This document shows, in pieces, positions 2,936 to 64,000 of a stretch of 64,000 nucleotides of DNA (the first letter of the stretch is position 1; each line of letters begins with the position of its first letter). The stretch covers positions 94,501 to 158,500 of IMG/VR virus record IMGVR_UViG_3300046000_008568. One strand, given 5' to 3'. Both the position numbers and the translations under genes were made by a program. The notes below the pieces were generated by a model. It ran no database searches and was not told where the DNA came from. It was given only the letters and a program-made list of their open reading frames with translations. This stretch comes from a virus (lineage: Duplodnaviria > Heunggongvirae > Uroviricota > Caudoviricetes).

Positions 2936-2936
2936 A

Positions 2937-4603: not shown

Positions 4604-4605
4604 CT

Positions 4606-6496: not shown

Positions 6497-6497
6497 T

Positions 6498-7226
6498 ATG
6501 AAAACATTAGTAGCAATACTTCAATACAACACTTATGAGCTAACAGATAGTTTATACGAAAATTTAAAACCATATGAAAAAGATATCTATGATCTAATAG
6601 TAGTAGATAACGGTTCTAACTCTGATAAAATAAGTAAATATACCACTCACGCCTTAGAACAAAATGTATTTTATGGAGGGGGTGTAAGTGTTATATTAGA
6701 TTTATTTCTTGAATCACCTCAATATGATTCTGTTATAATATTGAACAATGATTTACACTTACATGGTTATGATTATATTAAAACATTACGAGAAGAAATG
6801 TTTAAAGGTGATTTTAAGTTAATTTCCCCTTGCGTATTAGAACCTCATACAGGTGAACAGTCTATTTGGAAAACTATGAGACCTTGGCATACTGGAACTA
6901 CTCGAGAAGTATCGTACATTGATTATCAAGCTCCTATGTTCTCTAGAGAATTAGCTGAAAAAATCCATCCAATTCCTGAACAATTAATCTATGGGTGGGG
7001 TATTGACTTCCTTTCTAGTATAATATGTGAAGAAAATAATTGGAAAATGGGAGTATGTGATAAAACACCTACAATACATCTAATCAGCCAAACTCTTAAA
7101 CTAAATTCAGAATTATCCCAAGTTAGTAATTTAGCTGAAAGAAATATGTTCGAATATTTTGAAAAATCAGGAAAATTTAGTAAATTTATGGAGATCAGAA
7201 ATAAAACTCTTAATTATGAAATCTAA
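6498..7226 (+). CDS. glycosyltransferase family 2
   Basis: LVAILQYNTYEL...VVDNGSN GT2-A N-terminal signature; the ATG at 6498 is preferred over the track start at 6465, which overlaps the upstream gene. Confidence 0.5.
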   Translation: MKTLVAILQYNTYELTDSLYENLKPYEKDIYDLIVVDNGSNSDKISKYTTHALEQNVFYGGGVSVILDLFLESPQYDSVIILNNDLHLHGYDYIKTLREEMFKGDFKLISPCVLEPHTGEQSIWKTMRPWHTGTTREVSYIDYQAPMFSRELAEKIHPIPEQLIYGWGIDFLSSIICEENNWKMGVCDKTPTIHLISQTLKLNSELSQVSNLAERNMFEYFEKSGKFSKFMEIRNKTLNYEI

Positions 7227-8085: not shown

Positions 8086-8151
8086 TATACTGCTATATAA
8101 AATTTGGATAATTAAAAAATAATCATTATATTTAAAAATAAAATAAAATAA

Positions 8152-9315
8152 ATGAAAAAAATAGAGTTAATTCAAGACACAATAGATAATCAAGATATTG
8201 ATAATTTAGTAGATTGGTTAAAAACATATCCAAGATTAACAAAAGGGGATAGAACAATTGAATTTGAAAATAAGTGGAGTAATTGGTTAGGAACTAAACA
8301 CTCTATCTTTGTTAATTCGGGATCATCTGCAAATCTTTTAATGCTATACACTCTTAGAGTATTGGGAAAAATGAAAAATGATAAAGTATGCGTACCTTCA
8401 CTATGTTGGGCAACTGACCTATCACCTGTCTTACAATTAAATATGACACCTTTACTAATCGATTGTAATCTAGATAACTTATCAGTTGATTTAAATCATT
8501 TAGAAAACATATTTATTGAACAAAATCCTTCTGTTTTACTATTAGTTTCTGTTTTAGGTCTTTCTCCGGATATGGAAAAAATTGTAGAATTATGTAACAA
8601 ATATGATGTAATTCTGCTTGAAGATAATTGTGAGTCTCAAGGAACTAAATATAATGATGTTAAATTAGGTAATTTTGGATTAATGTCTTCATTTTCAACC
8701 TACTTTGGACATACAATGTCTACAATTGAAGGTGGTATTATTTCAACAAACGATGATGAAGTATATTATACATTACTTCAACTTAGAAGTCATGGATGGG
8801 ATAGAGATTTACCTAAAACTCAACAAACAAATCTTAGAGAAGAATGGAAAATATCCGAATTCTCTTCATTATATACATTTTATATTCCTGGTTTTAATTT
8901 AAGAAGTACTGATTTGCAAGCCTATCTTGGATTACTTCAATTAAATAAAGTAGATCAAATGATTAATAATAGAGCTGAGAATTTTCAATATTACAAATCA
9001 AAATTAGAAGGCAAAGTTTGGTTTCCTAAAACTTTTAAAAATGAATTTATTGCAAATTTTGCACTTCCATTTATAGCCAAAACTGCTCAAGATAGAGAAA
9101 ATCTAATCAAAGAATTAACAGATAATAACATTACCTGCAGACCTTTAATTTCAGGATCTATGGGAACACAACCTTTTTATAAAAAATTGTATGGTGAGAA
9201 AATATTACCAAACTGCTCAATTATAGATGAAAGAGGTATCTATGTACCAAATCATGATAAATTAGCTAAGGAAGATATTGATAAAATTTGTAACATTCTT
9301 TTAAAATATAAATAA
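8152..9315 (+). CDS. DegT/DnrJ/EryC1/StrS-family PLP-dependent sugar aminotransferase
   Basis: 387 aa; KWSNWLGTKHSIFVNSGSSANLL ... FSTYFGHTMSTIEGGII resemble the aminotransferase class-V/DegT fold with its lysine region. Confidence 0.6.
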   Translation: MKKIELIQDTIDNQDIDNLVDWLKTYPRLTKGDRTIEFENKWSNWLGTKHSIFVNSGSSANLLMLYTLRVLGKMKNDKVCVPSLCWATDLSPVLQLNMTPLLIDCNLDNLSVDLNHLENIFIEQNPSVLLLVSVLGLSPDMEKIVELCNKYDVILLEDNCESQGTKYNDVKLGNFGLMSSFSTYFGHTMSTIEGGIISTNDDEVYYTLLQLRSHGWDRDLPKTQQTNLREEWKISEFSSLYTFYIPGFNLRSTDLQAYLGLLQLNKVDQMINNRAENFQYYKSKLEGKVWFPKTFKNEFIANFALPFIAKTAQDRENLIKELTDNNITCRPLISGSMGTQPFYKKLYGEKILPNCSIIDERGIYVPNHDKLAKEDIDKICNILLKYK

Positions 9316-9316
9316 T

Positions 9317-10192
9317 ATGATAACATACGCACTATCTACATTCAATACTTTAAATTATTTAAAATTAGCAGTACAATCCGCTAGAGAAAACGGATATTAT
9401 AAAGACGCTTTATTCGTTATACATGCTGAGAATTGCACTGACGGTACTAATGAATGGTTAGAAGAAAATAAAGAACGATATAATTTAGAAATTTATATTG
9501 AAAAAAACGAAATACCAAGAGGTATTGGAGGTGGAATGAATTTCTGCGCTAGTAAAGTTAAAACTAAATATATTGGGTTTTTATCTTCAGATTTTTACAT
9601 GGCTAGAAATTGGGATAAAGAATTGGTAGATATATGCGAAAATAACTCACAAGACAAAATATGGTCATTTAGTTATAGAATAGAACCAGACATATTTAAT
9701 GATCCTAATAGCAGACCAGGAGTAGTAAAAGTTCCAGTTGATGCCTTTGGTGAATTTCATCATAATTTTAATAGTGACTTTTTTACAGAATGGAGTAATG
9801 AATTTGCTGCTTCAAATGATATAATGTTTGATGTTCCTCAAGGAGTAAGTGGAGTTATTAAAAAAGAAGATTGGGATTACATAGGAGGTAATGATGATAG
9901 ATTTGCACCAATGTATTGGGAAGACGCCGATATTTTTATTAGAATGTTAAATGAAGGTTTTAAATTTAAACTTACCAGTAAGTCTGTACTTTATCACTTC
10001 GCTTCTAGAACAAGCCGATTTCCCGATGATAATTTAAACCAAAGACCAGCTCATTTAGCAGCATATGAGCAAAGAAGTTTGCAACGTTTTGTAGAAAAAT
10101 ACGGAAAGTTACCATTACATGGACCTTTAGGTCAATATACGCCTATGCCTATTGCTGATAGTTCACCAAATAGAATAAATCAAAATAATTAA
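9317..10192 (+). CDS. glycosyltransferase family 2-like
   Basis: 291 aa; N-term MITYALSTFN, DxD-like region. Confidence 0.4.
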   Translation: MITYALSTFNTLNYLKLAVQSARENGYYKDALFVIHAENCTDGTNEWLEENKERYNLEIYIEKNEIPRGIGGGMNFCASKVKTKYIGFLSSDFYMARNWDKELVDICENNSQDKIWSFSYRIEPDIFNDPNSRPGVVKVPVDAFGEFHHNFNSDFFTEWSNEFAASNDIMFDVPQGVSGVIKKEDWDYIGGNDDRFAPMYWEDADIFIRMLNEGFKFKLTSKSVLYHFASRTSRFPDDNLNQRPAHLAAYEQRSLQRFVEKYGKLPLHGPLGQYTPMPIADSSPNRINQNN

Positions 10193-10193
10193 T

Positions 10194-11159
10194 ATGAAAA
10201 CAGCGTTAATAACAGGAATAAACGGAATGGATGGAAGTCATTTAGCTGACTTTTTACTAGAAAAGGGATATACTGTCTACGGATTAGAAAGACGTAGTTC
10301 TAGTGAAAACCGAACAAATATACTACATATACAAGATAAAATTAAATTTATAAAAGGAGACTTAACAGATCAAAATTCTCTTTTAAGAGCCCTAAAAGAA
10401 GCTAACCCCGATGAAGTATATAATCTGGCTGCTCAATCATTTGTGGGAGAAAGCTGGAACACCCCAGAACAAACTAGTGATGTAACAGGATTAGGAGTGT
10501 TAAGAATGTTAGAAGCCATTCGTGAATATGGCTCGGATAAAATTAAATTTTACCAAGCATCATCCTCAGAAATGTTTGGACGTATGGTTGAAAACCCAGC
10601 AACAGAAAATACACCATTTTACCCTCGTTCGCCTTATGGTGTAGCTAAATTATATGGACATTGGATAACTAAAAATTATAGAGAATCTTATGATATGTTT
10701 ACTTGTTCTGGTATACTATTTAACCATGAATCAGAACGACGTGGTTTAGAATTTGTAACTAGAAAAATAACTAATGGTGTAGCTAAAATTCATTTAGGAT
10801 TAGCAAATCATATTTCATTGGGTAATTTAGATGCAAAACGTGATTGGGGTTATGCTCCTGATTATGTTGAAGCGATGTGGTTAATATTACAACAAGATAC
10901 ACCAGATGATTATGTTATTGCTACTAACTGCACTTATTCTATTAGAGACTTCTTAGATGAAGCATTCATAGCAATCGGAATTGCAGATTGGGAACCATAC
11001 ATTCAAATAGATCCTCAATTTATAAGACCAGCAGAAGTAGATGTGTTAAGAGGAAATGCTACTAAAGCATATAAACAATTAGATTGGTCTCCAAAAACAG
11101 ATTTTAAACAAATGGTACATATAATGGTACAAAACGATATAAAATTATTAAGTAAATAA
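10194..11159 (+). CDS. gmd: GDP-mannose 4,6-dehydratase
   Basis: ALITGINGMDGSHLADFLLEKGYTVYG, YNLAAQSFV, SSSEMFG, SPYGVAKLYGHWIT, LFNHESERRG are textbook Gmd/SDR motifs. Confidence 0.8.
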   Translation: MKTALITGINGMDGSHLADFLLEKGYTVYGLERRSSSENRTNILHIQDKIKFIKGDLTDQNSLLRALKEANPDEVYNLAAQSFVGESWNTPEQTSDVTGLGVLRMLEAIREYGSDKIKFYQASSSEMFGRMVENPATENTPFYPRSPYGVAKLYGHWITKNYRESYDMFTCSGILFNHESERRGLEFVTRKITNGVAKIHLGLANHISLGNLDAKRDWGYAPDYVEAMWLILQQDTPDDYVIATNCTYSIRDFLDEAFIAIGIADWEPYIQIDPQFIRPAEVDVLRGNATKAYKQLDWSPKTDFKQMVHIMVQNDIKLLSK

Positions 11160-11160
11160 A

Positions 11161-11730
11161 ATGGCTCATAAAGAACAAATTGATTACGTTAACAAAATAA
11201 AAAATCAATTTCCTCAATTTTTTACCAATAAAAAAGTGTTAGGTATAGGTACCTTTAATGTATGTGGTACTGAAGATGAATATTTTGAAAATTGTGACTA
11301 TCAAGGATTAGATTTAGGACCAGGACCAGGAGTTAATATTGTTTGTCCCGCTCAAGAGTATGATGCTCCTGATAATACATTTGACATAATTATTTCATGT
11401 GAATGTTTTGAACACAATCCATTTTATAAAAAAACCATACAAAATGCTGTTAGAATGTTAAAACCAAATGGTATGTTTCTATTCACTTGTGCTACTACAG
11501 GAAGACCAGTTCATGGAATTAAATCATTAGAAGAAGAAAGTAAAAAGAAATTTACTAATTGGAAAACAATGCCCAATGTAGTTAAAGAAAACTGGGATAA
11601 TGAGTACTATAAAAATTTAACTGAAGAAGATATTAGAGAATGTCTTGATTTTGATAAAGAATTTCTTTTATATAAATTTGAAGTTGAACCTAACCATTGC
11701 GATTTATTTTTCTGGGGAATTAAAAAATAA
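11161..11730 (+). CDS. class I SAM-dependent methyltransferase
   Basis: VLGIGTFNVCG glycine-rich motif I, LKPNGMFLF post-II motif. Confidence 0.5.
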   Translation: MAHKEQIDYVNKIKNQFPQFFTNKKVLGIGTFNVCGTEDEYFENCDYQGLDLGPGPGVNIVCPAQEYDAPDNTFDIIISCECFEHNPFYKKTIQNAVRMLKPNGMFLFTCATTGRPVHGIKSLEEESKKKFTNWKTMPNVVKENWDNEYYKNLTEEDIRECLDFDKEFLLYKFEVEPNHCDLFFWGIKK

Positions 11731-50305: not shown

Positions 50306-50715
50306 TGGCTTATATAAGAAGTAATAGGGTTGACCCTAGGGATTTCCAAATCAATACTGCTATTGGGGTTGCATTACCTTTTAGTGCTCCTGGTGTCTTT
50401 AGTAGTGTATATTCTACTAGGGATCAAGTCAAATACAATCTTATAAACCTAATAATGACCTCTCAAGGAGAAAGAATTGAAAATCCTAATTTTGGTACAA
50501 TTCTAAAACAACAATTATTTGAGCAAATCTCAGAGCAAACATTTCCTATTATTAAAAGTAGTATAACCAATGCTGTTGAACAATATATGCCCGAAGTTGC
50601 TATAGATTCTATTGACATAGTACCATATGCCGATGATAATACTTTAGTAGTAACAATAAATTATAGAATACTTCTTTCTAATCAACCCGATATTATAACA
50701 ATTAACCTAGTATAA
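50305..50715 (+). CDS. baseplate wedge protein, gp25/GPW-like
   Basis: 136 aa; TSQGERIENPNFGTILKQQLFEQ fits the gp25-family core; ATGA overlap. Confidence 0.55.
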   Translation: MAYIRSNRVDPRDFQINTAIGVALPFSAPGVFSSVYSTRDQVKYNLINLIMTSQGERIENPNFGTILKQQLFEQISEQTFPIIKSSITNAVEQYMPEVAIDSIDIVPYADDNTLVVTINYRILLSNQPDIITINLV

Positions 50716-52526
50716 TGGCTCAAAACAAAAATATATCTTATCTAAATAAGAATTTTCTTCAATATAAAGCATCTCTTATTGAGTTTGCTAAAAATTACTT
50801 TCCGAACACATATACTGACTTTTCAGAAGCATCACCTGGTACTATGTTTATTGAAATGTCTTCATATGTTGGGGATGTTTTGTCATTTTATACAGATACC
50901 CAAATACAAGAAAATTTTGTATTAACGGCTAAAGAAAAGGAAAACTTATTGAATATGGCTTATTCTTTAGGATATCGTCCTAAGGCATCATATGCTTCTG
51001 TTACTACAGTTGATTTTTATCAAAGAGTTCCTATTTTAAATGGTGCTCCTAATTTAGATTACGCATTAATTATTCCTGAGAATACTCCTTTACAATCTAA
51101 TTCTTCTCAAACCAACTTTATAACTACTAAAAAGGTTGATTTTACTGACACGGGTTCGGTAAGTATTAGTTTGTATGATGGTAACAATTACTTATTTAAA
51201 AAATCAGTTAAAGCTATTTCTGCTACTATACAAACTGCAACTTTCTCATTTGGAGCTCCTGTAAAATTTAATTCTGTTGAAATAAATGATCCTAACTTTC
51301 TTCAAGTACTTCAAGTTACAGGAAGTGATGCTAGTCAGTGGTATGAAGTACCTTATTTAGCTCAATCTAATATAATAAATAGAACTACTAATACTGGTCC
51401 TTCACTTAACCAAGTACCTTATTTGCTAAGTTTATTAGAAACTCCTAATAGATATGTATCAAGAATTAGAACGGATGATATTATAGAATTACAATTTGGT
51501 TCAGGTATGTATGTAAACGACCCAGATAATGTACTTATTCCTACCCCAGATGCAATTCAATTAGGAATGGTTCCTTCTGTTGATACTTCTGATTTGATTA
51601 ATAACTACAATCAAGCTGCTGTATTTTACACTAAACAATATGGTACGGTGCCATCAAATATATCATTAACAGTTCAATATCTTTCAGGTGGTGGAGTTGG
51701 TGCTAACGTGACAGCAAATGATATTACTATAGTTGCTTCTAATGCTGGTATAACTGCTCTTAACCCAACATATACCAATGCGTCTCTCGCGACTTTACTC
51801 GTGAATAACGCAATACCTGCTACAGGTGGTAGAAGTGGTGATACAGTAGAAGAAATACGTTTAAACACGCTAAATGCATTTTCGGCACAATTAAGAGCTG
51901 TAAGTAAAGATGATTATATGAATCGTGCTTTAAGTATGCCTTCTGATTTTGGTACTATATCTAAAGTGTATGTTGAGCAAGCTTCTGCATTATCTGTTAA
52001 TACTGGTAATGATCCTTTAATTGATAATAATCCTTTAGCGTTATCAATGTATGTGTTGGCTTATGATGATAATAAAAAATTAGTTAACGCAACTACGGAT
52101 TTAAAAACTAACTTAAAAGAATATTTAGAACCATTTAGAATGGTTACAGATGCGGTTATTATTAAAGATGCCTATTATATTAATTTAGGTTTAAACTTTG
52201 ATATAACAGTTATTCCTGGGTTGAGTAATAATCAAATATTAACAGATTGTATAACTGCATTAGTTAACTATTTTGATATAGATAAATGGCAAATTAATCA
52301 ACCTATTATACTATCAAATATTAATGCTCTATTATTACAAATAAAAGGAGTACAATCATTAGTAAAACTTGAATTTACGAACAAATCCGGAGGTAATTAT
52401 TCTCCATATAGTTATGATGTTTCTGGTGCTTTTAGAAGTGGAGTTTTATATCCTTCTTTAGATCCGGCTACATTTGAAATAAGATACCCTGATTTAGACA
52501 TACAAGGTAGAGTTGTAACTTTTTAA
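50715..52526 (+). CDS. baseplate J/gp6-like protein
   Basis: 603 aa immediately after the gp25-like gene, with a TAATG overlap. Confidence 0.4.
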   Translation: MAQNKNISYLNKNFLQYKASLIEFAKNYFPNTYTDFSEASPGTMFIEMSSYVGDVLSFYTDTQIQENFVLTAKEKENLLNMAYSLGYRPKASYASVTTVDFYQRVPILNGAPNLDYALIIPENTPLQSNSSQTNFITTKKVDFTDTGSVSISLYDGNNYLFKKSVKAISATIQTATFSFGAPVKFNSVEINDPNFLQVLQVTGSDASQWYEVPYLAQSNIINRTTNTGPSLNQVPYLLSLLETPNRYVSRIRTDDIIELQFGSGMYVNDPDNVLIPTPDAIQLGMVPSVDTSDLINNYNQAAVFYTKQYGTVPSNISLTVQYLSGGGVGANVTANDITIVASNAGITALNPTYTNASLATLLVNNAIPATGGRSGDTVEEIRLNTLNAFSAQLRAVSKDDYMNRALSMPSDFGTISKVYVEQASALSVNTGNDPLIDNNPLALSMYVLAYDDNKKLVNATTDLKTNLKEYLEPFRMVTDAVIIKDAYYINLGLNFDITVIPGLSNNQILTDCITALVNYFDIDKWQINQPIILSNINALLLQIKGVQSLVKLEFTNKSGGNYSPYSYDVSGAFRSGVLYPSLDPATFEIRYPDLDIQGRVVTF

Positions 52527-52559
52527 TAACTCTATATTTATAGCAAATAAATAATATAA

Positions 52560-53696
52560 ATGGCCGTTTATAAAATATTTCCCGAAAAGGACACAACTAT
52601 CTATTCTGAATTTCCTGATCTTAATACAGGATTGGATTCTATATTAGAAGTAAAGAATACTGTTCCTACTTTAAATAGTGATACTCAAGTATCTAGAACA
52701 TTAATTCAATTTCCTTCTGATAAGATGTTAGAAGTTTCTGCTTTAATTTTTAATACAAATACTATCCCTGTTGTTGGTCCTGTTCCTCCATCTACTCCTA
52801 CGGGAATGTATAGTGCCTCTTTAAAATTATTCATAGCAGAAGCATATAACCTACCAGATAATTATACTTTATATTGCTACGCAACTTCACAATCATGGCA
52901 AGCAGGAACAGGAAGATATTTATATGATCCTCCTTATACTCAAGATTGTAATTGGTATAATAGAGATAACAGTAATGCGTGGCCTACTTCTAGTTTCTTT
53001 ACTGATACTACTGCTTCCTTTAACTTTAATACTCCTGGGGGTGGTGTTTGGTGGGATATATATTTTGGATCTCAATCGTTTATAATAAACACTACTAAAG
53101 ATACTAATATAAATGTTACTGATATTGTAGAGACATTTAATACTCCTGGTTTTTTAGAGAATAATGGATTCCTATTAAAATTTGAAGACCTGTATGAATT
53201 TAATGCTTCGTCTTCTTATTCATTAAAATTTTTTTCTAAAGACACTCATACTATATATCTTCCTCAACTTGAATTTGGTTGGGATGATAGTGTTTATAAT
53301 ACGGGATCATTATCTGTATTAGGAGATCAAAATGTAGCCGTTACTTTAGGTAATAATGTAGGGTTTTATAATGTAAATGATGTATGCCAATTCAGAGTAA
53401 ATGCACGACCTATTTATCCTCCTCGTCAATTTACAACCCAATCGGTATTTACTCTAAATAGTGCTTTACCTTCATCTTCTTATTATGCTATACAGGATTT
53501 AGACACAGAAGAATATGTTGTAAATTTTAGTGAAGAACATACCAAAATAAGTTGTGATACCGCAGGGAACTTTTTTACGTTATACACTGCTGGGTTTCAA
53601 CCCGAAAGATATTATAAAATATTGATTAAATCTACATTTAGTAATGGTTCATCTGTTATATATAATAACGATTATATTTTTAAAATAAATAAATAA
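52560..53696 (+). CDS. baseplate/tail-fibre-associated structural protein
   Basis: 378 aa, Asn/Thr/Ser-rich. Confidence 0.35.
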   Translation: MAVYKIFPEKDTTIYSEFPDLNTGLDSILEVKNTVPTLNSDTQVSRTLIQFPSDKMLEVSALIFNTNTIPVVGPVPPSTPTGMYSASLKLFIAEAYNLPDNYTLYCYATSQSWQAGTGRYLYDPPYTQDCNWYNRDNSNAWPTSSFFTDTTASFNFNTPGGGVWWDIYFGSQSFIINTTKDTNINVTDIVETFNTPGFLENNGFLLKFEDLYEFNASSSYSLKFFSKDTHTIYLPQLEFGWDDSVYNTGSLSVLGDQNVAVTLGNNVGFYNVNDVCQFRVNARPIYPPRQFTTQSVFTLNSALPSSSYYAIQDLDTEEYVVNFSEEHTKISCDTAGNFFTLYTAGFQPERYYKILIKSTFSNGSSVIYNNDYIFKINK

Positions 53697-54046
53697 TGGC
53701 TGAAATAATTCCGGTTCAGAATTTAATTTACAATAAGGGGACATTTACTAGAGTGATTAATACACAATTTAGTGAATTAAATTCTCCTCCAATTGTTATT
53801 CCTGAGACAACAGTAGATGCCTTTTTTGAATTATATGATGAATTATTTCCTATTATACCTAATGAAGGTGATATAAATTCGCATAGAGCAATTTTATTAA
53901 GAGAAGCTGAGTATTTAAATGTGCAATTAGCCGATGAAGCTGAAGTACAGGCTTTGCTACAGGAAATAACAGATTTAAGACAACAATTATTAGAAGCTGA
54001 AGTAAACACTGTTACAACATTAGCTCAAAATAATTTAAACATATAA
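53696..54046 (+). CDS. coiled-coil structural protein
   Basis: 116 aa with a C-terminal heptad coiled coil. Confidence 0.35.
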   Translation: MAEIIPVQNLIYNKGTFTRVINTQFSELNSPPIVIPETTVDAFFELYDELFPIIPNEGDINSHRAILLREAEYLNVQLADEAEVQALLQEITDLRQQLLEAEVNTVTTLAQNNLNI

Positions 54047-54063
54047 TAAACAAATAACTGTTA

Positions 54064-55668
54064 ATGGCAGATAATATAAAAATAATAGGACAAGTTTTAG
54101 ATACAAGCCGAGTAAATCGTTATGATTTACAGGATGAACAACTACTTCTTCCTATTGTACAACAAGAAACCTTCGGGAAACCAGAAGACTATGTTGAATA
54201 CTTTGTATTTGATCTAGGAGGAAATGTATTAAATTCAAATTATAACTATAATTCATATAAATTACCTTCAAATTACGGTTATTCCCAAAGTTATCTCCCT
54301 ACACTAGAAATAGACCCAATCCAGGATATTGAAAATTTAGGATATGAATCCGGTGAAGTTACCTCTAGATATAATTTCTTTAGAAAAGTATCAGGAGAGC
54401 CTTTTAGTTCCCAACTCTTTATATCCCAAATATCATCAGACCGAACTGAATTAAGAGTAGGCTCTACTGAGTTAGATGATATTGCTTTAATTGATGTTGC
54501 TAGTAATTTTGCTGATAAGCAATTGGCTGTTCCTTATTATTATTACGTTATACTTAATTTTGGTAATAATAACCAAGTAGTAGCAGTTAATGTATTAAGT
54601 GAAGTAAATGCTTTAGGAGAAGCAAGTTTATTATTTAAATTATACGAAGCACTTCCATCTAATATTACATTAAAAGATAAATTTTGGATTGTAGAAGAGA
54701 TAGTTAATCCTTATATCTATGACCTTAGTTTAAGTAAAGTAATTACTCCTTTACCTCAACCTTATTTAAAAGGACCTAATTTTAATATTGATTTAGAATT
54801 TAAAGATGTAGTACCTACCCAATATAGCAATTTAAATCAATTAATTAACCCATCTGCTGGTCCTTCTTATCCAGTAACACCATCAATAAGTGTTACTCCT
54901 AGTGTAACTATTACTCCTAGTGTAACTGTTACCCCTAGTGTAACACCATCTATAACAGTCAGTGTTACTCCTAGTGTAACTATTACTCCTAGTGTAACAC
55001 CAACAATTTCAGTAAGTGTTACTCCTAGTGCATCACCAGGAAATTCAGTAAGTGCTACTCCTAGTATAACACCGTCAATATCGATTTCGTCTACTCCTAG
55101 TATAACACCGTCAATATCGATTTCGTCTACTCCAAGTGTAACACCGTCAATAACAATCAGTGCTACTCCTAGTGTAACGCCTACAATTTCAATTAGTGCA
55201 ACACCAAGTGTAACACCATCAATATCGATTTCGTCTACTCCTAGTATAACGCCTACAATTTCAATTAGTGCAACACCAAGTGTAACACCATCAATATCGA
55301 TTTCGTCTACTCCTAGTATAACACCTACAATAACAGTAAGTGTTACTCCTAGTATAACACCGTCTTCTTCTGAACCACCAGCAATATTGTTGAAAGAATT
55401 TTTAATATCAAATCTTTCAGATGAGTCTAATGCCTGTAGTCTTCCTATTTCAAACACAGTTTATGTCACTAATACTACTATTGATGGAGGAAATACTACT
55501 GCAACAACTACCTCAGAAATTTATACAAATCCAGCAGGTACAATAACTTTTACTGGTGATGGTGATTATTATGCTCTTTTTTGTGATGACTTAACCAATA
55601 CATTGACAACAAATCAAAGGATTACTCCAGTAGGTACAATAAATGGTAGTGTTGGTGTATGTCTTTAA
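54064..55668 (+). CDS. tail fibre/adhesin protein with a (T/S)PS(I/V)T linker array
   Basis: 534 aa; residues 270-440 consist of TPSVTPSITISATPSV repeats. Confidence 0.5.
   Translation: MADNIKIIGQVLDTSRVNRYDLQDEQLLLPIVQQETFGKPEDYVEYFVFDLGGNVLNSNYNYNSYKLPSNYGYSQSYLPTLEIDPIQDIENLGYESGEVTSRYNFFRKVSGEPFSSQLFISQISSDRTELRVGSTELDDIALIDVASNFADKQLAVPYYYYVILNFGNNNQVVAVNVLSEVNALGEASLLFKLYEALPSNITLKDKFWIVEEIVNPYIYDLSLSKVITPLPQPYLKGPNFNIDLEFKDVVPTQYSNLNQLINPSAGPSYPVTPSISVTPSVTITPSVTVTPSVTPSITVSVTPSVTITPSVTPTISVSVTPSASPGNSVSATPSITPSISISSTPSITPSISISSTPSVTPSITISATPSVTPTISISATPSVTPSISISSTPSITPTISISATPSVTPSISISSTPSITPTITVSVTPSITPSSSEPPAILLKEFLISNLSDESNACSLPISNTVYVTNTTIDGGNTTATTTSEIYTNPAGTITFTGDGDYYALFCDDLTNTLTTNQRITPVGTINGSVGVCL
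54880..55380 (+). repeat. in-frame tandem DNA repeats (about 60-nt units) encoding the Thr-Pro-Ser linker
   Basis: Near-identical 60-nt units at 55141-55200, 55201-55260 and 55261-55320; the same unit family recurs at 62880-63470. Confidence 0.6.
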
Positions 55669-55708
55669 TATTAATTAGGAAATTGTTCATTTGAAAATAA
55701 AATAAAAT

Positions 55709-58700
55709 ATGTCAATATACGCAACTTTAAACTCACTTACCAATCAAGAAATAAACATAAATATAGATTATAGTTTATTAAACGATTTTATTCATTATAG
55801 CTCAGCTGTAAGTAGAATAAATAATTTTATGTATAAGATTGGGGAGATTGAAGGGTATCAATATGAAATTACTACTTTTTCTCCTTTAACATCAAGTAAT
55901 GCTTCTTTAATAAACCAAATAAATAAAGCAAGTTCTAGTTTAAACACAACTATTGCGAATTTTGATGGGTTTGAATCTTATTTATATTTTAATTCTAGTT
56001 CATTAACCTCTTCTATTATACAATATACTTTAGATACGGGTTCATATTTAACATATAATATAGCTCCTTATCCTAAATCAAATCTTGTTCAACCATATAT
56101 TTTATATCCATCATCATCTGTTACTGTTACAAATTGGTATCAAGATGCCATTGAAGTAGCAAGTAATTATGATATAGAAAATAAAGACATATTAATTAAT
56201 ACTATACCTTCCTATATCCTAGATGACCCAGGTAATTATTTACCTTATATTGTTTTTGTTAATATGATAGGCCAATATTTCGATAACATTTGGGTTTACA
56301 TCGATAAAGTAACTGATGTATGGGATAATAATAATAATTTAAACGAAGGTATATCTCAAGATTTAGTATATGATTGGTTGAGATCATTTGGGATGAAATT
56401 ATATAATTCTCAGGGTGACCAAAGTGTATTGGATTATAATGTTGGTGGGTATAGTGGTAGTGTTGAATTTGCTCCAAATTGTCGTACTTACGAATTTACT
56501 AATATTACTAGTTCTCCTTTAACTCAAACTTGGATTAATTGTAATAATACTTTAGGAAGCGCAAATATTTCTGGTTTATTTGCAAGTGTACAAGCCTGTG
56601 CTATATCGGGAAGTTATTCTCCTTTAACCGCAGGTATAACAGTAACAGATTTAGGTCCTTGTTATGATGGAAATTATTCACCATCGAGTAGTTTCTTAAA
56701 TAATATTCCTAAAAAAGAATTAGTATTAGATACTTATAAAAGACTTTATCATAATTTACCTTATTTATTTAAAGGAAAAGGTGCCCATGGTGGTTTACAA
56801 GGACTAATTACATTATTTGGTATTACAGGTTCAATTCTTCCTATTAAAGAATATGGTGGAACAAATGATTATCAAGATTTAAAAGGATATTCACTAAACA
56901 AAATATCATTAGGATCAAATAATCTTACAGGAAGTATATTATCTCCTATAAAACGATTTGAAACTACTACAACATCATCTAGAGCAGTTAAAAGTCAAGA
57001 TTTACATTTTATTGATGTATCTTTTTCTCCTCAAACCCAAATTGATAGCGAAGTATCTGCTTCTATCACAGCAGTAAACCCTAATTGGGTCATTGATGAT
57101 TATATTGCCTACCCAGAAGCGCTTTATTTAGATACTTATCCTTCACTATCATTTCAACGAGATTATTGGTTTGGGCAAACCTTTACACACCCAAATGAAG
57201 GATTTGATTATGCTGGGTTTATTAGATTAATTCAATTCTTTGATAATTCATTATTTAAAATGGTCAAAGATTTTACTCCGGCTAGAGGTAATACTTGGAC
57301 TGGGGTATCTATTAAGTCACCTGTGTTAGAACGTCCTAAGGTACCGGAAGCTAAGCCTATATTTACTGCTTATCCTGATTTGGAAGGTGAAGTTACAGGG
57401 GCTGCTTTAATACCCGTTTATGATCCTTACTATTTTTATTTAGCAGGAGATAAAGAACCTTACTACAATGGTAATATTACAGGATCATTTATTGACACTT
57501 ATGCTCAATTTGAAGAATTAAACAGAAACCCATATTTAGTAAACAATACAGTTGGATATATCCCACCAGGATTTGTTAATGGTAATACAGATTTTATTTT
57601 AGACACTACAGCACCAGCATACGAAAATTTCTTTATTAATTCAGATTTTAATGCCTTACAAAATAATGAATTTGTAAGTTTAACTTCTAAATATAGAAAA
57701 AAATTAATTCCTATATTATCTACAGATTCTTTAGGAAGAGCATTTACTTCTTATTCAATAACAGGAGCTGTTCAACTTCAAGATTCATATTTAAGTGATA
57801 CATCATATGTTAATTCAAGATATAATGGTGTACAACTTTATAGCACTATTTATAATACATGGACTGAGGGAGACCGATCATATGGTCTTACCCCAGTAAT
57901 AAATTATAATACTAAAAAACTTGGTTTATTTACTGAGGTTGTAGATAGTGTATTGCCTTATAAAAGTAATGTTACTTTAAAATATTTAGTTGATGAAGAC
58001 GGAAAACTTACTGAATTGAATCAACGTAATAGAAACTGGTGTGAGGTTCAAAATACATTTGAAACTGGGGAAACATTAAATGTATCTTTATTTAATACAC
58101 AACAATATTCAAATCAATATGCTACTAATGGTAATAGAGTAATCCATGAAAGCGGGTATGCTTACTACCCAGTACTATATTTTTTTGGTGCTTCTGCACC
58201 AACTGCATCTCAATTTATACCTTTTTATAATCCAACAGGCCAATTAGGAGTATTAGGTACTAATTTCTTTAATAATCATCCCTCAGGAGGTAACTTTATT
58301 CCTGCTGCAAATTATACTTCTGCTAGTAATGGGGGGTCATATGAAGTATGGAATATGTTTAATATAACAGGTTCACCAGGAGCCCAACCAATTTCACTAT
58401 TTTCTCAAGTTAATTTCCCTACAAGTTATTTTGGTGATTCATTCTTTACAGGTTCTGGGCCTGGTGTTGTTGATGATAATGGATTAAGAGTTACTTCTTC
58501 ATATTATATAGTTCCAAGTACTGGAGTTTATGATTTTTCACATGATTTTGAAGTAACTGTAACTGGAGATGTTGGGGCTATTTTTACAGGTAGTATGGAA
58601 ATCTGGTTGAGTAGTTCAATAAATCAAACATTTTCTAAACAAATTTCTACTGAATTATCAGTTAAAATAGAGCCGGGAGTATGGAATGGATTATTAGGCA

Positions 58701-59782
58701 ATCAAAACTGGCTGGCATCCTCTCAAAATTCTTACATTGTAGATACTGGGGAGTTTGTTACTATATTTAACCAGTATGTTATAAATGAATATGGTGGAAT
58801 ATCTGCAACTTGTGGACAATCTCCTGATAGTACATTTCTAGTAAACCCTTCAGATACTATATATAGAAAATATAATGCATATTTTGATAGAGATTACCAA
58901 GCTGTACTTTGGGGTACTTTTTGGATAGCTGATGATCTTAATCCTCTTCAAAATGATAATTGGAGAACATGTAAAAAATATAAAGACTTATCTCTATGTT
59001 CTGGAAACCCAACATCAACATTAAGATTTACAAATAACTGGCTACTTGATACTAATCAATCTGCTACATTTGGGGTTGGAGATATTGTATCTTTTAGATT
59101 TTTATGCCAAACTACATCCTCAGGGGCTAATAAAATAGAATCAGCATCGTTAAGTTCATTTATTGAAAGTACAGCATATACTCCTTTTTGGGTATTTTCT
59201 GGGACTAGTTATTCTCCCGGAGTATTAAAAGTTACTCCTACTAATAATGCTCAAGTAGCAACAGCTTCTATTTGTACAGATCAACCCAATAATTCATTTG
59301 TTTTAGGACAGAATTTATCTAATTTTTATTCCCCAGATTATTTTTTCAATCCATTAGCTACAAACTACTCAGCATCATATGCTACCTTATATCAAGAATA
59401 TGGTTATATTGCTTATCCTTTTCAATTAGAATCTTATGATAAAATATTAATTCAAATTGAAGGAGCTAATGGTTTTCTATTTGAATATAATATAGATCAA
59501 GTAGCTATTGATGGTAATGGTAATCTTAATATATTAATAAAGGAAGATATAAATGGGTATTTTAGAGACAAAACATGTAATACATTTTATAAAATAGTAT
59601 TTTTAAAACGAGTCCCTGATGAAACTAGTATTTTTATTAATCTAATAAAACCACCAGGAAAAACATCTTATGGATTTATAATTCCCGAAAATATATCCTT
59701 AGATGTAATGAATAACATAGATAACATTACTAAAAACGTTAAATTACAGTTATTAGATGCTGGAAGTAATGTAATTGTATAA
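55709..59782 (+). CDS. large tail fibre/baseplate structural protein
   Basis: 1357 aa, Asn/Ser/Thr/Tyr-rich. Confidence 0.5.
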   Translation: MSIYATLNSLTNQEININIDYSLLNDFIHYSSAVSRINNFMYKIGEIEGYQYEITTFSPLTSSNASLINQINKASSSLNTTIANFDGFESYLYFNSSSLTSSIIQYTLDTGSYLTYNIAPYPKSNLVQPYILYPSSSVTVTNWYQDAIEVASNYDIENKDILINTIPSYILDDPGNYLPYIVFVNMIGQYFDNIWVYIDKVTDVWDNNNNLNEGISQDLVYDWLRSFGMKLYNSQGDQSVLDYNVGGYSGSVEFAPNCRTYEFTNITSSPLTQTWINCNNTLGSANISGLFASVQACAISGSYSPLTAGITVTDLGPCYDGNYSPSSSFLNNIPKKELVLDTYKRLYHNLPYLFKGKGAHGGLQGLITLFGITGSILPIKEYGGTNDYQDLKGYSLNKISLGSNNLTGSILSPIKRFETTTTSSRAVKSQDLHFIDVSFSPQTQIDSEVSASITAVNPNWVIDDYIAYPEALYLDTYPSLSFQRDYWFGQTFTHPNEGFDYAGFIRLIQFFDNSLFKMVKDFTPARGNTWTGVSIKSPVLERPKVPEAKPIFTAYPDLEGEVTGAALIPVYDPYYFYLAGDKEPYYNGNITGSFIDTYAQFEELNRNPYLVNNTVGYIPPGFVNGNTDFILDTTAPAYENFFINSDFNALQNNEFVSLTSKYRKKLIPILSTDSLGRAFTSYSITGAVQLQDSYLSDTSYVNSRYNGVQLYSTIYNTWTEGDRSYGLTPVINYNTKKLGLFTEVVDSVLPYKSNVTLKYLVDEDGKLTELNQRNRNWCEVQNTFETGETLNVSLFNTQQYSNQYATNGNRVIHESGYAYYPVLYFFGASAPTASQFIPFYNPTGQLGVLGTNFFNNHPSGGNFIPAANYTSASNGGSYEVWNMFNITGSPGAQPISLFSQVNFPTSYFGDSFFTGSGPGVVDDNGLRVTSSYYIVPSTGVYDFSHDFEVTVTGDVGAIFTGSMEIWLSSSINQTFSKQISTELSVKIEPGVWNGLLGNQNWLASSQNSYIVDTGEFVTIFNQYVINEYGGISATCGQSPDSTFLVNPSDTIYRKYNAYFDRDYQAVLWGTFWIADDLNPLQNDNWRTCKKYKDLSLCSGNPTSTLRFTNNWLLDTNQSATFGVGDIVSFRFLCQTTSSGANKIESASLSSFIESTAYTPFWVFSGTSYSPGVLKVTPTNNAQVATASICTDQPNNSFVLGQNLSNFYSPDYFFNPLATNYSASYATLYQEYGYIAYPFQLESYDKILIQIEGANGFLFEYNIDQVAIDGNGNLNILIKEDINGYFRDKTCNTFYKIVFLKRVPDETSIFINLIKPPGKTSYGFIIPENISLDVMNNIDNITKNVKLQLLDAGSNVIV

Positions 59783-59827
59783 AAGACATAAAACACAAAT
59801 ATTTATAAACAAATAATTAATTAATAA

Positions 59828-60490
59828 ATGGCTATATTAAATAACAATACTGTAACAATTGATGCAGTTTTAACAGCTAAAGGTAGAGAATTGCTAGCTA
59901 GAAACGATGGTTCTTTTAGAATTACACAATTCTCTTTGGCAGACGACGAAGTGGATTATACATTATATAATCCATCGCAACCATCAGGATCTGCGTTTTA
60001 CGGACAAGCAATTGAAGCTATGCCTGTAATGGAAGCATTCCCAGATGATACGCAAATTATGATTTATAAATTAGTAACTTTACCTAGAGGTACAGCTAAA
60101 TTACCTGTAATTAATGTTGGATACAATAGTATCTCATTAAAACAAGGAGCTACATTAACCATTACTCCTCAAACATTAAATTACTTAGGTGCTACTAGTA
60201 CATTTGAAGCTAATGGGTACGCTATTACAATTGCTGATGTTAGATTCTTATCTACATTCTCGGCAACAGGCGTCCCAGGCTCAACAACTACACCAACAGG
60301 TGTTACGTCAACAGTAGGTTCACAATTAAGCCAAACTATTATAGGTACTTCGTTTACATTAACTGGTACTACAATTAATACATTATTTGGTTCTGGTTTA
60401 AATCAAATTACAACTACTTTAACAGTACTAGGTAGAGATTCAGGAGCCAGAATTACAATTCCAGTAACAATCACAAAATCAAATTCATAA
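59828..60490 (+). CDS. virion structural protein
   Basis: 220 aa. Confidence 0.4.
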   Translation: MAILNNNTVTIDAVLTAKGRELLARNDGSFRITQFSLADDEVDYTLYNPSQPSGSAFYGQAIEAMPVMEAFPDDTQIMIYKLVTLPRGTAKLPVINVGYNSISLKQGATLTITPQTLNYLGATSTFEANGYAITIADVRFLSTFSATGVPGSTTTPTGVTSTVGSQLSQTIIGTSFTLTGTTINTLFGSGLNQITTTLTVLGRDSGARITIPVTITKSNS

Positions 60491-60496
60491 TAATAT

Positions 60497-61519
60497 ATGT
60501 CATTCGTAAGATATAACCCAGAAGACTCAGTAGTAAGTACAGAAACCGTAGTAAGACCAATGTGGAGTGGTGACCTTAACACATTAACTACTTTTTATAC
60601 TTCTAGTGTAATTACTAGCTCATTTTATATAAATGTATATAGTGCATATCCCGGAGCCCTAAATGCTACTACAGAATCGGTTCAAATGGCCATTCAATAT
60701 GGAAACAAATATGGTAGTGGTTCATCCTATATAAACCCCGCTGCAACTACTATAATGCCGGATGGTTCATCTTTAACTACTTCTAGAGTTGTTTACGGAC
60801 AATATAGAACATTATTGTTAGGAACAGAAAGTGGAAGTTTTGATTTTGGAAATGATAATCCAAATGATATTTATATTATAAATGTTGCTAGAAATAGATA
60901 TAAAGAACACCTTCAACCGGGTTCTATGACATTAAATCTAAAAAATGGTGCCGCAACAATTGTTTTAACAGATAATAGTCAAATAACATCTACAACTAAC
61001 TACACAACTGCTGGTACTTTATATTATACTTTAATTTCAGGTAGTGCCGGGGCTGCGGCTACGGCGGCTAATTCAGCCTCTATTTATGGTTATATGTATC
61101 CGGACAGTGATATTATTATTCTTAATCCAACAGCATTAAGCAAATCAATACCAGATGGTGGTTTAGCTTTTACTCCAACCGTATCCTCTCCGGGGACTAA
61201 TAATAGCATTCAACAAGGATTTTATCAAATAATGTCCGCTAGTGCTAATTTTGCTCTTCAATCAGCTGAAAATGTATCTGCTCATTATTTCTTTACAAGA
61301 GTAAAAAATCAAGATTTTAACTATACCACTAATCCTTCTATTATAGATGCTAATGGTAATTTAATTTATACTACATTAATTAATAATCCACAAACGTTTA
61401 TAACAACTGTTGGATTATATAATGATACTAATGAATTGTTAGCCGTAGCTAAATTAAGTAGACCGTTAGTAAAAGACTTTACTAAAGAAGCCCTTATAAA
61501 AGTAAAATTAGACTATTAA
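60497..61519 (+). CDS. virion structural protein
   Basis: 340 aa. Confidence 0.4.
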   Translation: MSFVRYNPEDSVVSTETVVRPMWSGDLNTLTTFYTSSVITSSFYINVYSAYPGALNATTESVQMAIQYGNKYGSGSSYINPAATTIMPDGSSLTTSRVVYGQYRTLLLGTESGSFDFGNDNPNDIYIINVARNRYKEHLQPGSMTLNLKNGAATIVLTDNSQITSTTNYTTAGTLYYTLISGSAGAAATAANSASIYGYMYPDSDIIILNPTALSKSIPDGGLAFTPTVSSPGTNNSIQQGFYQIMSASANFALQSAENVSAHYFFTRVKNQDFNYTTNPSIIDANGNLIYTTLINNPQTFITTVGLYNDTNELLAVAKLSRPLVKDFTKEALIKVKLDY

Positions 61520-61540
61520 TCTAAATAATAATGTTACTAC

Positions 61541-64000
61541 ATGGGATCATTCAAACAGTTAAAATCATCAGATGTTATAACAGTACCCGTTATAGCCAAT
61601 AAAACTTGGAATTTTAACTACTGTCCTATTCCATCTACTGATCCTTATATTTCAGTGTATAATGGGACTAACTATACTAATTCTTTTAATCCGGGTAATG
61701 AGCCTTCGACTAATACACATTACGATAGGTTAACCTATAGACAAATTAATCAGTTATTTTATCATCAATACTCAGGAAGTCTAAATACGGCTTCCTTGGC
61801 TTCTTCTATTCATTATTTATCTGCTAGCAGTCAACATCCATCGGCTTCGTTTTTTAATTTTAATAACGATCCTGCTTTTATTTCATATTTTCCTACAGGA
61901 GCAAATGAAACTATTAGGGTAATTCAGATATCTCCGGATGCTTATGGTAATAAGGTTTTACCATATTCATTTCAAATGTCATCGTCTCAATATAGTTTTT
62001 ATGATGATGGTAAAGGAAATATTTATGATAATTTTAGTGGTCCTACTCCTATTTTTGTAGGTAATATATTTTATCCTGAAGGTACTATTGTTATTACAAG
62101 TCAAACTTATCAGAATGTATTTGTTTTACCGGCAGTTGCTTATGATGATGTTTACACTATAGTAAGAAATGATTATCTAAATCCTGCTACATTTTCTTTT
62201 TATCCATTAATAAATGATGATTTACGAGGAAATACACTAGTAAATAATTCAATTCAAATATTTGGAGGTAATGCTAGTTTCTTTAGTACGGGTTCAAATA
62301 ATTCCGTGTCTTTATCTTTCTCTGGTCTAGGCATAGGAACATATCAGACATTTTATACATTTTTTACTACAGGCTCTTATTGTGCTCCCTTAATGAGTAG
62401 CACAGCTAGTATTACTGTTAATGTAACTGATCCTGATTGTGAATTTGAAATTAAAATTATAATTCCTCCCCCATATCCACCTAGTTTATCTCCTAGCCCA
62501 ACAGTTACACCATCAATAACAGTAACTCCATCAATTACCGTTACTCCTAGCTTAACACCTAGTAGAACAATAACACCAACAGTTACACCATCAATAACAG
62601 CAACGCCAACAGTAACACCAACACCATCTCCTTCAACACCATTTGAATTTAGAGATGCTAAAGGATGTTGTGATGGATCGTATCAAGTAATATCTATACC
62701 GGCAGCCTATGGTGGTGGGTGGTATGTTACCACTACTGGTCAATGTTATAGTGTAGGAGATGATCCAACACCAGGGCCAGCAACTATTATTTGGGATGGA
62801 GGAACATTATATGCTGATTGTGCTGCTTGTACAAGTGTTAATTTATGTCCTTCACCATCACCAACACCTACAAAATCAGCTACTCCAAGTGTAACGCCAT
62901 CTATAACAGTGTCTCCTAGTGTAACACCATCTAAAACACCAAGTGTAACGCCTACAATATCAATTAGTAGAACACCTAGTGTAACTCCGTCTTCTTCGCC
63001 ACCGGTTGATTGTAATTGTTATGAATATGAATTTGAAGCACTTTCAGATGGGTATGTTTGTTATACAGATTGTATTAGTGGAGATAATATTTGTGATTTC
63101 TATGCTGCTGGAACTTATACATCTAATTGTGTAAGGGCAAATACTTTAGGTGGAAATATTTCAATTGAAACCGCTACGCTTTGTGGTAATTGGTGTGTTT
63201 CCTCAAGTCCAACTCCAACACCAACTAAGACTCAAACACCATCAATTTCAATAACACCTACTATTTCGATTAGTAGAACACCTAGTGTAACGCCTACAAT
63301 TAGTATAACTCCGTCTATATCAATTAGTATAACACCGACAGTAACGCCAACAATTTCAATTAGTGCTACTCCTAGTATAACACCGTCAATAACAATCAGT
63401 GCTACTCCAAGTGTAACGCCTACAATTTCAATTAGTGCTACTCCTAGTGTAACGCCTTCTCCTTCTACAACTACTATATCCTCTCCAACCTCACTAAATA
63501 TAGGAGAAACCAGTAACCAAGCTTGTTCTGGAACTGGGGGAGCAGCACTTGTTTGTTTTGTTGGTGGTATTGATTTATGTACTGCTACTTCATTAAGAGA
63601 TAGTGATGGAGTTATTTGTTTCTTAACTCCTCCTCAAGATGGGTGGTATTCAGATGGGTTTGATGTTCGATATTGGGACGGGTCAGCATTTACAACAAGT
63701 TGTACTGTATGTTTATCACCATCACCATCACCAACACCAACACCAACAAAAACTGTCACACCAACCCCTAGTATAACACCATCTCCATCAGGGCCAGCAT
63801 GTGAAATTATTACATTTAACTTTGGTGTAACTAAAACTGGGGCTTGCTCAGAATTTGCAGACTTTGCTGATTTTGGTTTATTAGATGGAGATTTTTTATG
63901 TAGTGGAGGAATGACTTTACTAAATAGTAATGGAGTCAGTTGTTTGGGGGTTGCTAGCTCTATTTGGATAGCTACTCTTGGTGGTGGTTCGGGTGCTGAT
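61541..64000 (+). CDS. large modular adhesin/fibre protein, 3' end outside window
   Basis: Frame open from the ATG at 61541 to the window end (820 codons); not in the ORF track because it has no stop; four Cys-rich modules separated by PTPT/TPSITPS linkers. Confidence 0.5.
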   Translation, partial: MGSFKQLKSSDVITVPVIANKTWNFNYCPIPSTDPYISVYNGTNYTNSFNPGNEPSTNTHYDRLTYRQINQLFYHQYSGSLNTASLASSIHYLSASSQHPSASFFNFNNDPAFISYFPTGANETIRVIQISPDAYGNKVLPYSFQMSSSQYSFYDDGKGNIYDNFSGPTPIFVGNIFYPEGTIVITSQTYQNVFVLPAVAYDDVYTIVRNDYLNPATFSFYPLINDDLRGNTLVNNSIQIFGGNASFFSTGSNNSVSLSFSGLGIGTYQTFYTFFTTGSYCAPLMSSTASITVNVTDPDCEFEIKIIIPPPYPPSLSPSPTVTPSITVTPSITVTPSLTPSRTITPTVTPSITATPTVTPTPSPSTPFEFRDAKGCCDGSYQVISIPAAYGGGWYVTTTGQCYSVGDDPTPGPATIIWDGGTLYADCAACTSVNLCPSPSPTPTKSATPSVTPSITVSPSVTPSKTPSVTPTISISRTPSVTPSSSPPVDCNCYEYEFEALSDGYVCYTDCISGDNICDFYAAGTYTSNCVRANTLGGNISIETATLCGNWCVSSSPTPTPTKTQTPSISITPTISISRTPSVTPTISITPSISISITPTVTPTISISATPSITPSITISATPSVTPTISISATPSVTPSPSTTTISSPTSLNIGETSNQACSGTGGAALVCFVGGIDLCTATSLRDSDGVICFLTPPQDGWYSDGFDVRYWDGSAFTTSCTVCLSPSPSPTPTPTKTVTPTPSITPSPSGPACEIITFNFGVTKTGACSEFADFADFGLLDGDFLCSGGMTLLNSNGVSCLGVASSIWIATLGGGSGAD
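62460..63480 (+). repeat. Thr-Pro-Ser linker repeats homologous at DNA level to those at 54880-55380
   Basis: AGTGTAACGCCTACAATTTCAATTAGTGCTACTCCTAGT units shared with the gene at 54064-55668. Confidence 0.55.

Follow-up and report, generated by a model that had tools for sequence, protein, structure and literature searches.

Shared 36-nucleotide coding repeats in two tail-region genes of an uncultured phage, and an apparent cassette insertion that split a conserved baseplate-region gene

We analysed a stretch of 64,000 nucleotides (nt), referred to here as the window, which spans positions 94,501 to 158,500 of the IMG/VR virus record IMGVR_UViG_3300046000_008568. Two of its open reading frames (ORFs), ORF4 and ORF8, contain tandem arrays of short repeats that encode linkers rich in threonine, proline and serine (T/P/S); no arrays of this type were found in the other genes of the window. 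The source phage is an uncultured, AT-rich (32% GC) myovirus with a genome of ~166 kb, related to Flavobacterium phage immuto. The repeat genes sit in the baseplate and fibre module of this genome, downstream of a gp6-like wedge gene and of a gene for a GPW/gp25-family protein, which carries a Pfam mark on L076, an 18-kb JGI contig that is 100% identical to the window across 16.5 kb and provides the 3' end of ORF8. The features of the region are listed in Table 1.

Table 1. Features of the ORF4 to ORF8 region, in window coordinates.
Feature	Position	Strand	Remarks
gp6-like wedge protein	50715-52526		upstream of ORF4; PHROG 219
ORF4, 534 amino acids (aa): conserved N-terminal domain (N-domain), repeat-coded spacer and C-terminal β-module	54064..55668	+	ORF list
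ORF4 N-domain, aa 1-269	54064..54870	+	relatives have its homologue at the start of one protein of 1,249-1,792 aa
In-frame minisatellite, 14 units x 36 nt	54868..55371	+	Tandem Repeats Finder (TRF); codon register
850-nt insertion relative to all relatives	54871..55720	+	array, module, stop, 40-nt intergenic stretch, new ATG with 'MSIY'
Youngest part of the array: exact 76-nt direct repeat, offset 72 nt	55175..55322	+	copies 55175-55250 and 55247-55322
C-terminal module, ~93 aa, bracketed by two invariant Cys	55387..55665	+	small all-β barrel as modelled by AlphaFold2 (AF2; predicted local distance difference test, pLDDT, 93.9)
New intergenic spacer	55669..55708	+	upstream of ORF5; stop TAA before it; A-rich start context, no Shine-Dalgarno motif
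ORF5, 1,357 aa: rest of the split protein, with its own start codon	55709..59782	+	aligns with residues 273-1537 of the closest relative, L001
ORF8, 836 aa in total	61541..64000 in the window, ending 51 nt beyond it	+	completed by L076
ORF8 linker 1	62477..62641	+	
ORF8 linker 2	62849..63007	+	
ORF8 linker 3	63197..63496	+	nearest DNA relative of the ORF4 array
ORF8 linker 4	63713..63790	+	

The array in ORF4 is built from a unit of 36 nt, or 12 codons, that encodes (I/V)(S/T)(I/V)S(A/S/V)TPS(V/I)TP(S/T). TRF found a period of 36 nt (10.5 copies, 76% matches) as well as periods of 72 and 108 nt at 54984-55362, and the 3' half of the array has a super-period of 72 nt. An earlier annotation of this DNA, made from the sequence and hereafter called the first-pass annotation, had reported tandem repeats with units of about 60 nt. 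In-frame repeats are indeed present, as seen from the TRF result, the codon register and the exact 76-nt direct repeat, but the TRF periods and the 72-nt offset of that duplicate correct the unit to 36 nt and the super-period to 72 nt. The units follow each other head to tail with an identity beyond that expected from protein sequence and codon usage, and since their length is a multiple of three the reading frame is kept, as in other coding minisatellites. The encoded linker of 167 aa is composed of 30% S, 22% T, 17% P, 15% I and 11% V (S+T 52%, S+T+P 69%, Ile+Val 26%) and has a single Gly, with no collagen-like G-X-Y periodicity. This segment of low complexity lies between folded domains (pLDDT 93.9 for the module and 80-97 for the core of the N-domain), as is typical of interdomain linkers. 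A 196-aa ORF on the minus strand (54867-55457) was rejected as a gene, its lack of stops most likely being a side effect of the repeat composition.

The arrays of ORF4 and ORF8 are similar at the DNA level. TRF detected periods of 36 and 72 nt in ORF8 as well (63301-63457), and blastn aligned the two genes with 83% identity across 155 nt (55062-55214 versus 63301-63453), including a core of 60 identical positions out of 61 (from 55139 and 63378) inside a segment of 77 out of 84 (from 55135 and 63374). The matching segments have the same codon phase in both genes. As a null model we shuffled synonymous codons inside each linker 500 times, which preserves the protein sequence and the codon usage of the linker. 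The best ungapped score of 70 was reached in none of these shuffles (32.9±7.1), and the longest exact match of 31 nt was reached in one (17.8±2.5). We also compared 43 linker segments of at least 30 aa, drawn from 14 related genomes. The ORF4 array and ORF8 linker 3 each have the other as their best DNA hit, and they form the only best-hit pair that comes from one genome but from different genes; 19 of the other segments found their best hit within their own gene, and 22 found it in another genome, mostly in the equivalent gene and position. The excess identity together with the reciprocal best hits indicates that the two arrays are related by common descent or gene conversion. The sequence exchange between genes that the first-pass annotation had proposed is supported by these comparisons.

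ORF4 had been taken for an ordinary fibre gene. Our comparison with related phages shows instead that it is a composite: the first 269 aa come from a conserved baseplate-region protein of ~1,500 aa, and an inserted linker-module cassette follows. A scan of IMG/VR with the ORF4 N-domain, which is 88% identical in amino acids to L001 and 31% identical to gp162 of immuto, returned 74 loci. In each of the 49 complete loci, including L001 and immuto, this domain opens one ORF of 1,249-1,792 aa, the remainder of which is homologous to ORF5, and none of these 49 has a T/P/S array of the ORF4 type (only single windows of ~25 aa were flagged, in L028 and L039); 22 further loci are truncated at contig ends. 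L047 and L058 were considered as independent splits and set aside, as their breaks lie elsewhere in the gene and have no T/P/S arrays. In these two distant relatives (L047 5718 and L058 6043) the first ORFs are of 464 aa and 479 aa and homology continues downstream; the breaks may be frameshifts or sequencing errors.

Relative to L001 (87% nucleotide identity), homology runs up to 54847 and is back at 55721, while L001 holds 26 nt between these points. L001-L007 and L012 retain the ancestral hinge, ...LVTSFTGSSYQA(V/T)LNSLTNQ..., whose two halves are found in the window on the left as ...LINPSAGPSY|PVTPS... and on the right as MSIY|ATLNSLTNQ. The four-codon stretch x-S-x-Y is thus present at both edges of the insertion, giving it the look of a weak target-duplication-like signature. 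The AF2 model of the ORF4 N-domain has a mean pLDDT of 74 and a confident core, with values under 50 for residues 226-269, so the insertion sits in a probable flexible hinge.

ORF5 remains open over 4,074 nt, and as its frame differs from that of ORF4, read-through cannot fuse the two. Its start context, with a score of 2.8, is typical of this phage (5.2±3.6 for 52 gene starts of the window, versus -6.1±5.7 for all ATGs). The spacer between the genes has no terminator-like site, and promoter-like sites in it are not above those in shuffled sequence. Eleven metagenome contigs, of up to 165,861 nt, encode the exact 534-aa ORF4 protein, and the split ORF4/ORF5 pair was found in assemblies from three samples. 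Within ORF5, nucleotide homology to L001 (85-87% elsewhere) is lost at 58190-59537 (~1.35 kb, near the C-terminal third) and at 56471-56666 (~0.2 kb), suggesting that segments inside this gene were also replaced.

The module at the C-terminus of ORF4 belongs to a small protein family. A HMMER search against 1.84 billion representative proteins identified nine relatives, and in eight of them the match reaches to within two residues of the protein C-terminus. Members of the family follow PT- or TPS-rich linkers or other domains, and share two invariant Cys near both ends as well as the motif VYvSN...iYTd..GT.pF.GDG.YY. The predicted fold matches uncharacterised proteins of Virus NIOZ-UU157 and of Cellulophaga phage phi17:1. 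At the DNA level, 55386-55669 is 82% identical across 284 nt to a phage-like contig, L077, that otherwise shares nothing with the window except one weak protein match; the homology opens right after the linker and closes at the stop codon. The corresponding L077 gene (4450-5911; ENA LIAN20-1 scaffold_602) has a small Cys-rich N-domain, a long PTNT-type linker with a scaffold gap and then the C-module. As the homology covers the module only and the linker there is of the PTNT type, the module has moved between unrelated phages, and the linker attached to it is of local type. A tblastn search of the 75 related loci with the ORF4 module returned only the self-match. We regard this family as a candidate portable receptor-binding head.

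ORF8 follows a related plan, with an N-domain of ~305 aa and then four linkers that alternate with four Cys-rich modules, A to D, of 65-85 aa each. Among the modules compared, only C and D proved related to each other (36% identity, E 2e-9), and Pfam searches with the individual modules gave sub-threshold matches only. Two complete copies of ORF8 could be recovered, both of 836 aa, with the remaining contigs breaking in linkers. Nucleotide homology between the window and L001 stops at 62481, within the first bases of linker 1. In the homologues of ORF8 the ~305-aa N-domain is kept (38-94% identity), and what follows it ranges from nothing, in proteins of 309-334 aa, to linkers of ~400 aa and up to four modules. 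Even among homologues with N-domains 86-94% identical to that of ORF8 we found the architectures N-A-C/D-C/D, N-A-x-C/D, N-B-x and N-A, with linkers of 18-134 aa, and a 74%-identical homologue has a linker of 394 aa. This variation between lineages in linkers and modules is not open to doubts about assembly. It upholds the variable linker length and module swapping proposed by the first-pass annotation as far as ORF8 homologues are concerned; swapping between ORF4 and ORF8 finds no such backing, their modules being without detectable homology. Homology breakpoints thus fall at the repeated motifs, as expected for mosaic genes: at linker 1 (62481), at 55386 where the similarity to L077 begins, and in the architectures that diverge after the N-domain. 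Distant relatives have other compositions at the same linker position (APTT, PT or poly-T), suggesting that this position has the role of a composition-tolerant spacer.

Similar arrangements were seen next to ORF8. ORF9 (252 aa; L076 16614-17372, just past the window) has an ORF8-like plan with a 72-aa N-domain, a TPS linker at aa 72-157 and a Cys-containing C-module; compared with L001 its N-domain is 85% identical and its C-module only 43%. The ORF4 module has no significant similarity to that of ORF9. In five other loci (L009, L012, L013, L016 and L017, ~16.3-20.8 kb per locus) the ORF8 homologue consists of nothing but the N-domain (332-334 aa), and very long T/P/S arrays are borne by a separate downstream ORF that is not an ORF9 homologue; this ORF has 577 aa in L009, and in L016 it exceeds 1,000 aa and runs off the contig.

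Alleles of different unit number were found for the ORF4 array. In the 90% cluster of the ORF4 protein, the full-length members have 498, 534 and 558 aa, corresponding to 11, 14 and 16 units, and the differences of -36 and +24 aa are multiples of the 12-aa unit (36, 72 and 108 nt). The 16-unit allele (contig L078) has one extra 72-nt unit in a gene that is otherwise unchanged, and holds an exact repeat of 148 nt; the 11-unit allele, on the 4.1-kb contig L079, is shorter by 36+72 nt and carries a single substitution. The differences of +72 and -72 nt fall in the exact direct repeat at 55175-55322, and the parts of ORF5 present on L078 and L079 (2,958 and 1,869 nt) match the window without a difference. 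The 14-unit allele is present on 11 contigs and the 16-unit allele on two. Assemblies that break inside the arrays include those of samples 3300059473, 3300046008, 3300046010 and SRR35488120, with partial products of 96, 151-156, 168 and 223 aa; such breaks fit either repeat-induced graph breaks or strain heterogeneity.

The only named relatives of this phage are immuto (160 kb), Microcystis phage Mel-JY01 and an uncultured jumbo phage, with 26-39% amino-acid identity, and a megablast search of phage genomes with 50715-59782 gave no match. Family searches of PHROGs and Pfam returned the gp6-like wedge matches and, for ORF4 and ORF8, a low-complexity match (phrog_15511) and nothing else, and a sequence search of the PDB with the ORF4 N-domain and ORF5 was uninformative. 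Gene starts of the window (for example at 52535-52559, 53671-53695 and 55684-55708) are preceded by 55% A at positions -15 to -1 and have no Shine-Dalgarno motif, a pattern typical of translation initiation of the Bacteroidota type. Together with the kinship to immuto, these A-rich starts suggest a host in the Bacteroidota.

The other end of the window (198-11730, 11.5 kb) encodes a sugar and glycosyltransferase cluster, with two genes resembling glycosyltransferase family 1 (GT1), two of family 2 (GT2), a MobA-like nucleoside triphosphate (NTP) transferase, two DegT-type aminotransferases, a PglD-like hexapeptide acetyltransferase, a DUF707 protein, a GDP-mannose 4,6-dehydratase (E 9e-132) and a methyltransferase; this gene set would fit a GDP-perosamine-type pathway. 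Immuto has this cluster too, with 60% identity for the first glycosyltransferase, and we found no T/P/S arrays in the 73.9-98.4 kb structural region of immuto that was examined. The co-occurrence of cluster and linkers therefore does not discriminate, and we dropped it as a test of linker glycosylation, the cluster being a lineage trait common to immuto.

We propose, with a probability of about 0.7, that in-frame 36-nt coding minisatellites act in these tail-region proteins both as spacers and as portable homology, allowing slippage, module swapping and cassette insertion. Each spacer would join a conserved N-terminal domain, the putative virion anchor, to small and independently folding β-modules, many of them bracketed by Cys, which may be heads that bind receptors or glycans. 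Being alike in DNA and having the same codon phase, the spacers could serve as portable homology for three processes. Slippage or unequal crossing-over would alter the number of units (11, 14 or 16), and homologous or short-homology recombination at the spacers would swap, add or delete modules. In a third process, particular to this phage, a complete cassette, running from spacer and module through a stop and an intergenic stretch to a start codon, was inserted in the hinge of the ~1,500-aa baseplate-region protein, leaving ORF4 as anchor, spacer and new module, and ORF5 as the separately translated remainder. The repeats, the excess DNA identity, the alleles, the insertion and the module family with its transfer are what the data show; the recombination mechanism, the location in the virion, the function in binding and any effect on reach or host range are what we infer.

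Several observations weigh against this proposal, and other explanations have to be considered. The anchor and binding roles derive from the architecture and from the position of the genes next to those for gp25-like and gp6-like baseplate proteins. The strong identity between ORF4 and ORF8 is one stretch of ~85 nt, with the remainder at ~80%, and swapping between these two genes lacks direct support, as the ORF4 module has no detectable homology to modules A-D of ORF8; linker DNA is the sole thing common to both genes. That the similarity of the linkers is mere amino-acid and codon bias in low-complexity sequence, without shared descent or exchange, is a reading to which we give hardly any weight: both linkers do encode the same few residues, and most of their alignment is only ~80% identical, but the shuffles, the 60/61-nt core and the reciprocal best hits largely refute it. 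The dN/dS ratios relative to L001 are almost equal (0.146 for ORF5 aa 1-830 and 0.145 for the ORF4 N-domain); the ORF5 value speaks for persistence of the split, but mostly reflects divergence that may predate it. The split is unique among ~75 related loci, and two other relatives show breaks elsewhere in the gene, so one could think of a junk-disrupted gene on its way to loss, or of a chimeric assembly. We consider this very unlikely in view of the same arrangement on many independent contigs from several samples, of the length of the ORF5 frame at 32% GC and its typical start context, and of an inserted module that is intact, of a conserved family and confidently predicted to fold. More serious is the concern that the copy-number differences are assembly artefacts, with an array that is stable in nature and only the slow divergence of lineages being real. 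The three alleles all derive from short-read metagenome assemblies; collapse of every exact repeat of at least 43 nt would yield precisely the 11-unit allele; the 148-nt repeat of L078 exceeds common k-mers; and contigs often start or end inside the ORF4 or ORF8 linkers. We grade the polymorphism in unit number as likely but unproven for these reasons, and the expansion and contraction proposed by the first-pass annotation stands to the extent that the alleles differ solely by -108, 0 or +72 nt in the array, with flanks otherwise identical. Still, we find the artefact the less plausible account, at somewhat under one chance in three: the 14-unit and 16-unit alleles are each reproduced on more than one contig, linker lengths of 18-394 aa between lineages cannot be artefacts, and if the final graph was built with k=127, as we assume, one- and two-copy states of the 72-nt unit would be unambiguous, a cycle needing at least three copies in the reads.

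The physical nature of the repeat can also be read differently. Its strict 12-aa periodicity, and the 26% Ile+Val that alternate with Ser/Thr (as in ISISAT), are unusual for disordered PT linkers and might point to a structured β-rich shaft, in which unit number would set the length of a rigid fibre. This is unlikely to our mind, because a Pro every 3-6 residues limits strand length, and the APTT, PT or poly-T segments of relatives at the same position favour a composition-tolerant spacer. A somewhat weaker case can be made for arrays that are chiefly mucin-like substrates for O-glycosylation by the phage's own glycosyltransferases, with repeat number setting the glycan load. The density of Ser and Thr with Pro (52% S+T, 17% P) is mucin-like, the window encodes sugar-pathway enzymes and four glycosyltransferases, and phage glycosyltransferases do glycosylate virions in mycobacteriophages. 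But the same cluster is present in immuto, where arrays were not found in the region examined, and its target could be DNA, the capsid or host glycans. The general O-glycosylation sequon of Bacteroidota, D-(S/T)-(A/I/L/V/M/T), has no occurrence in ORF4 or ORF8. Still more speculative, and improbable in our judgement, is a combined scheme in which the phage's own 11-kb cluster would O-glycosylate the Ser/Thr arrays into mucin-like tethers, whose length, glycan load and reach would be tuned by gain and loss of units, and in which the cassette would have made of a baseplate protein an extra, glycosylated and branched adhesin.

If the spacer and portable-homology reading is correct, one repeat-coded spacer would set the length of a tether, provide in-phase homology for module swaps from gene to gene and from one phage to an unrelated one, and carry the stop and start that split a structural gene, offering a concrete model for the origin of new branched adhesins. 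Host recognition by phages evolves mainly through the exchange of modules in fibre genes, and the DNA substrates of this exchange are known in few model phages; the present case comes from an abundant uncultured freshwater lineage. With its natural alleles and architectures, one could ask if host range depends on the length of the spacer or on the modules carried.

Fibre mosaicism mediated by repeats is already known, as are linkers of the PT type. What appears to be new here is that a repeat-module cassette entered a conserved baseplate-region gene and split it, and that the module of this cassette has been transferred horizontally. In the tail fibres of T-even phages, recombination at conserved motifs (the His boxes of gp37/gp38 and glycine-rich motifs) swaps specificity cassettes. 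The phage studied here similarly has conserved short motifs flanking variable adhesin segments, but these motifs are long tandem arrays of varying length, and the units that seem to be swapped are whole small domains on flexible spacers. The arrays also resemble the Pro/Thr linkers of bacterial glycoside hydrolases and carbohydrate-binding module (CBM) proteins in composition, in variable length and in their position between independently folding modules; one member of the module family, P0014, joins the module to other domains that we read as typical of secreted proteins of Bacteroidota. They differ from such linkers in their phage structural context, high Ile/Val content, strict 12-aa periodicity and repeat identity at the DNA level.

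Collagen-like (G-X-Y) repeats flank the variable region VR2 in the antireceptors of Streptococcus thermophilus phages, where they were proposed as recombination hotspots (PMC5601072). Virophages have collagen-like repeat genes as well, and the host range of the Guarani virophage changed upon loss of repeat units through an 81-nt deletion (PMC7242381). In those systems, as here, a protein for host recognition has its domains set apart by short DNA repeats that stay in frame. The present unit is a 12-residue S/T/P/I/V repeat rather than G-X-Y, and the arrays have in addition brought a stop and a start codon to another gene. In the L-shaped tail fibres of the T5-like phages DT57C and DT571/2, LtfA and LtfB take the place of a single Ltf, and a branched fibre was proposed (PMC4728585); there too a polypeptide that is single in relatives is encoded by two genes, while the split described here arose through insertion of a repeat-module cassette. 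Rapidly evolving in-frame repeats are also found in other mobile-element and phage proteins, such as those of Borg elements, where tandem repeats give rise to disordered regions (PMC9879509), and the BACON domain repeats of crAss-like phages (PMC6949934). Borg repeats arise independently at each locus, whereas the arrays of ORF4 and ORF8 share sequence across genes and mark the boundaries of modules; and where the BACON repeats of crAss-like phages are whole domains, those described here are minisatellites of the linker.

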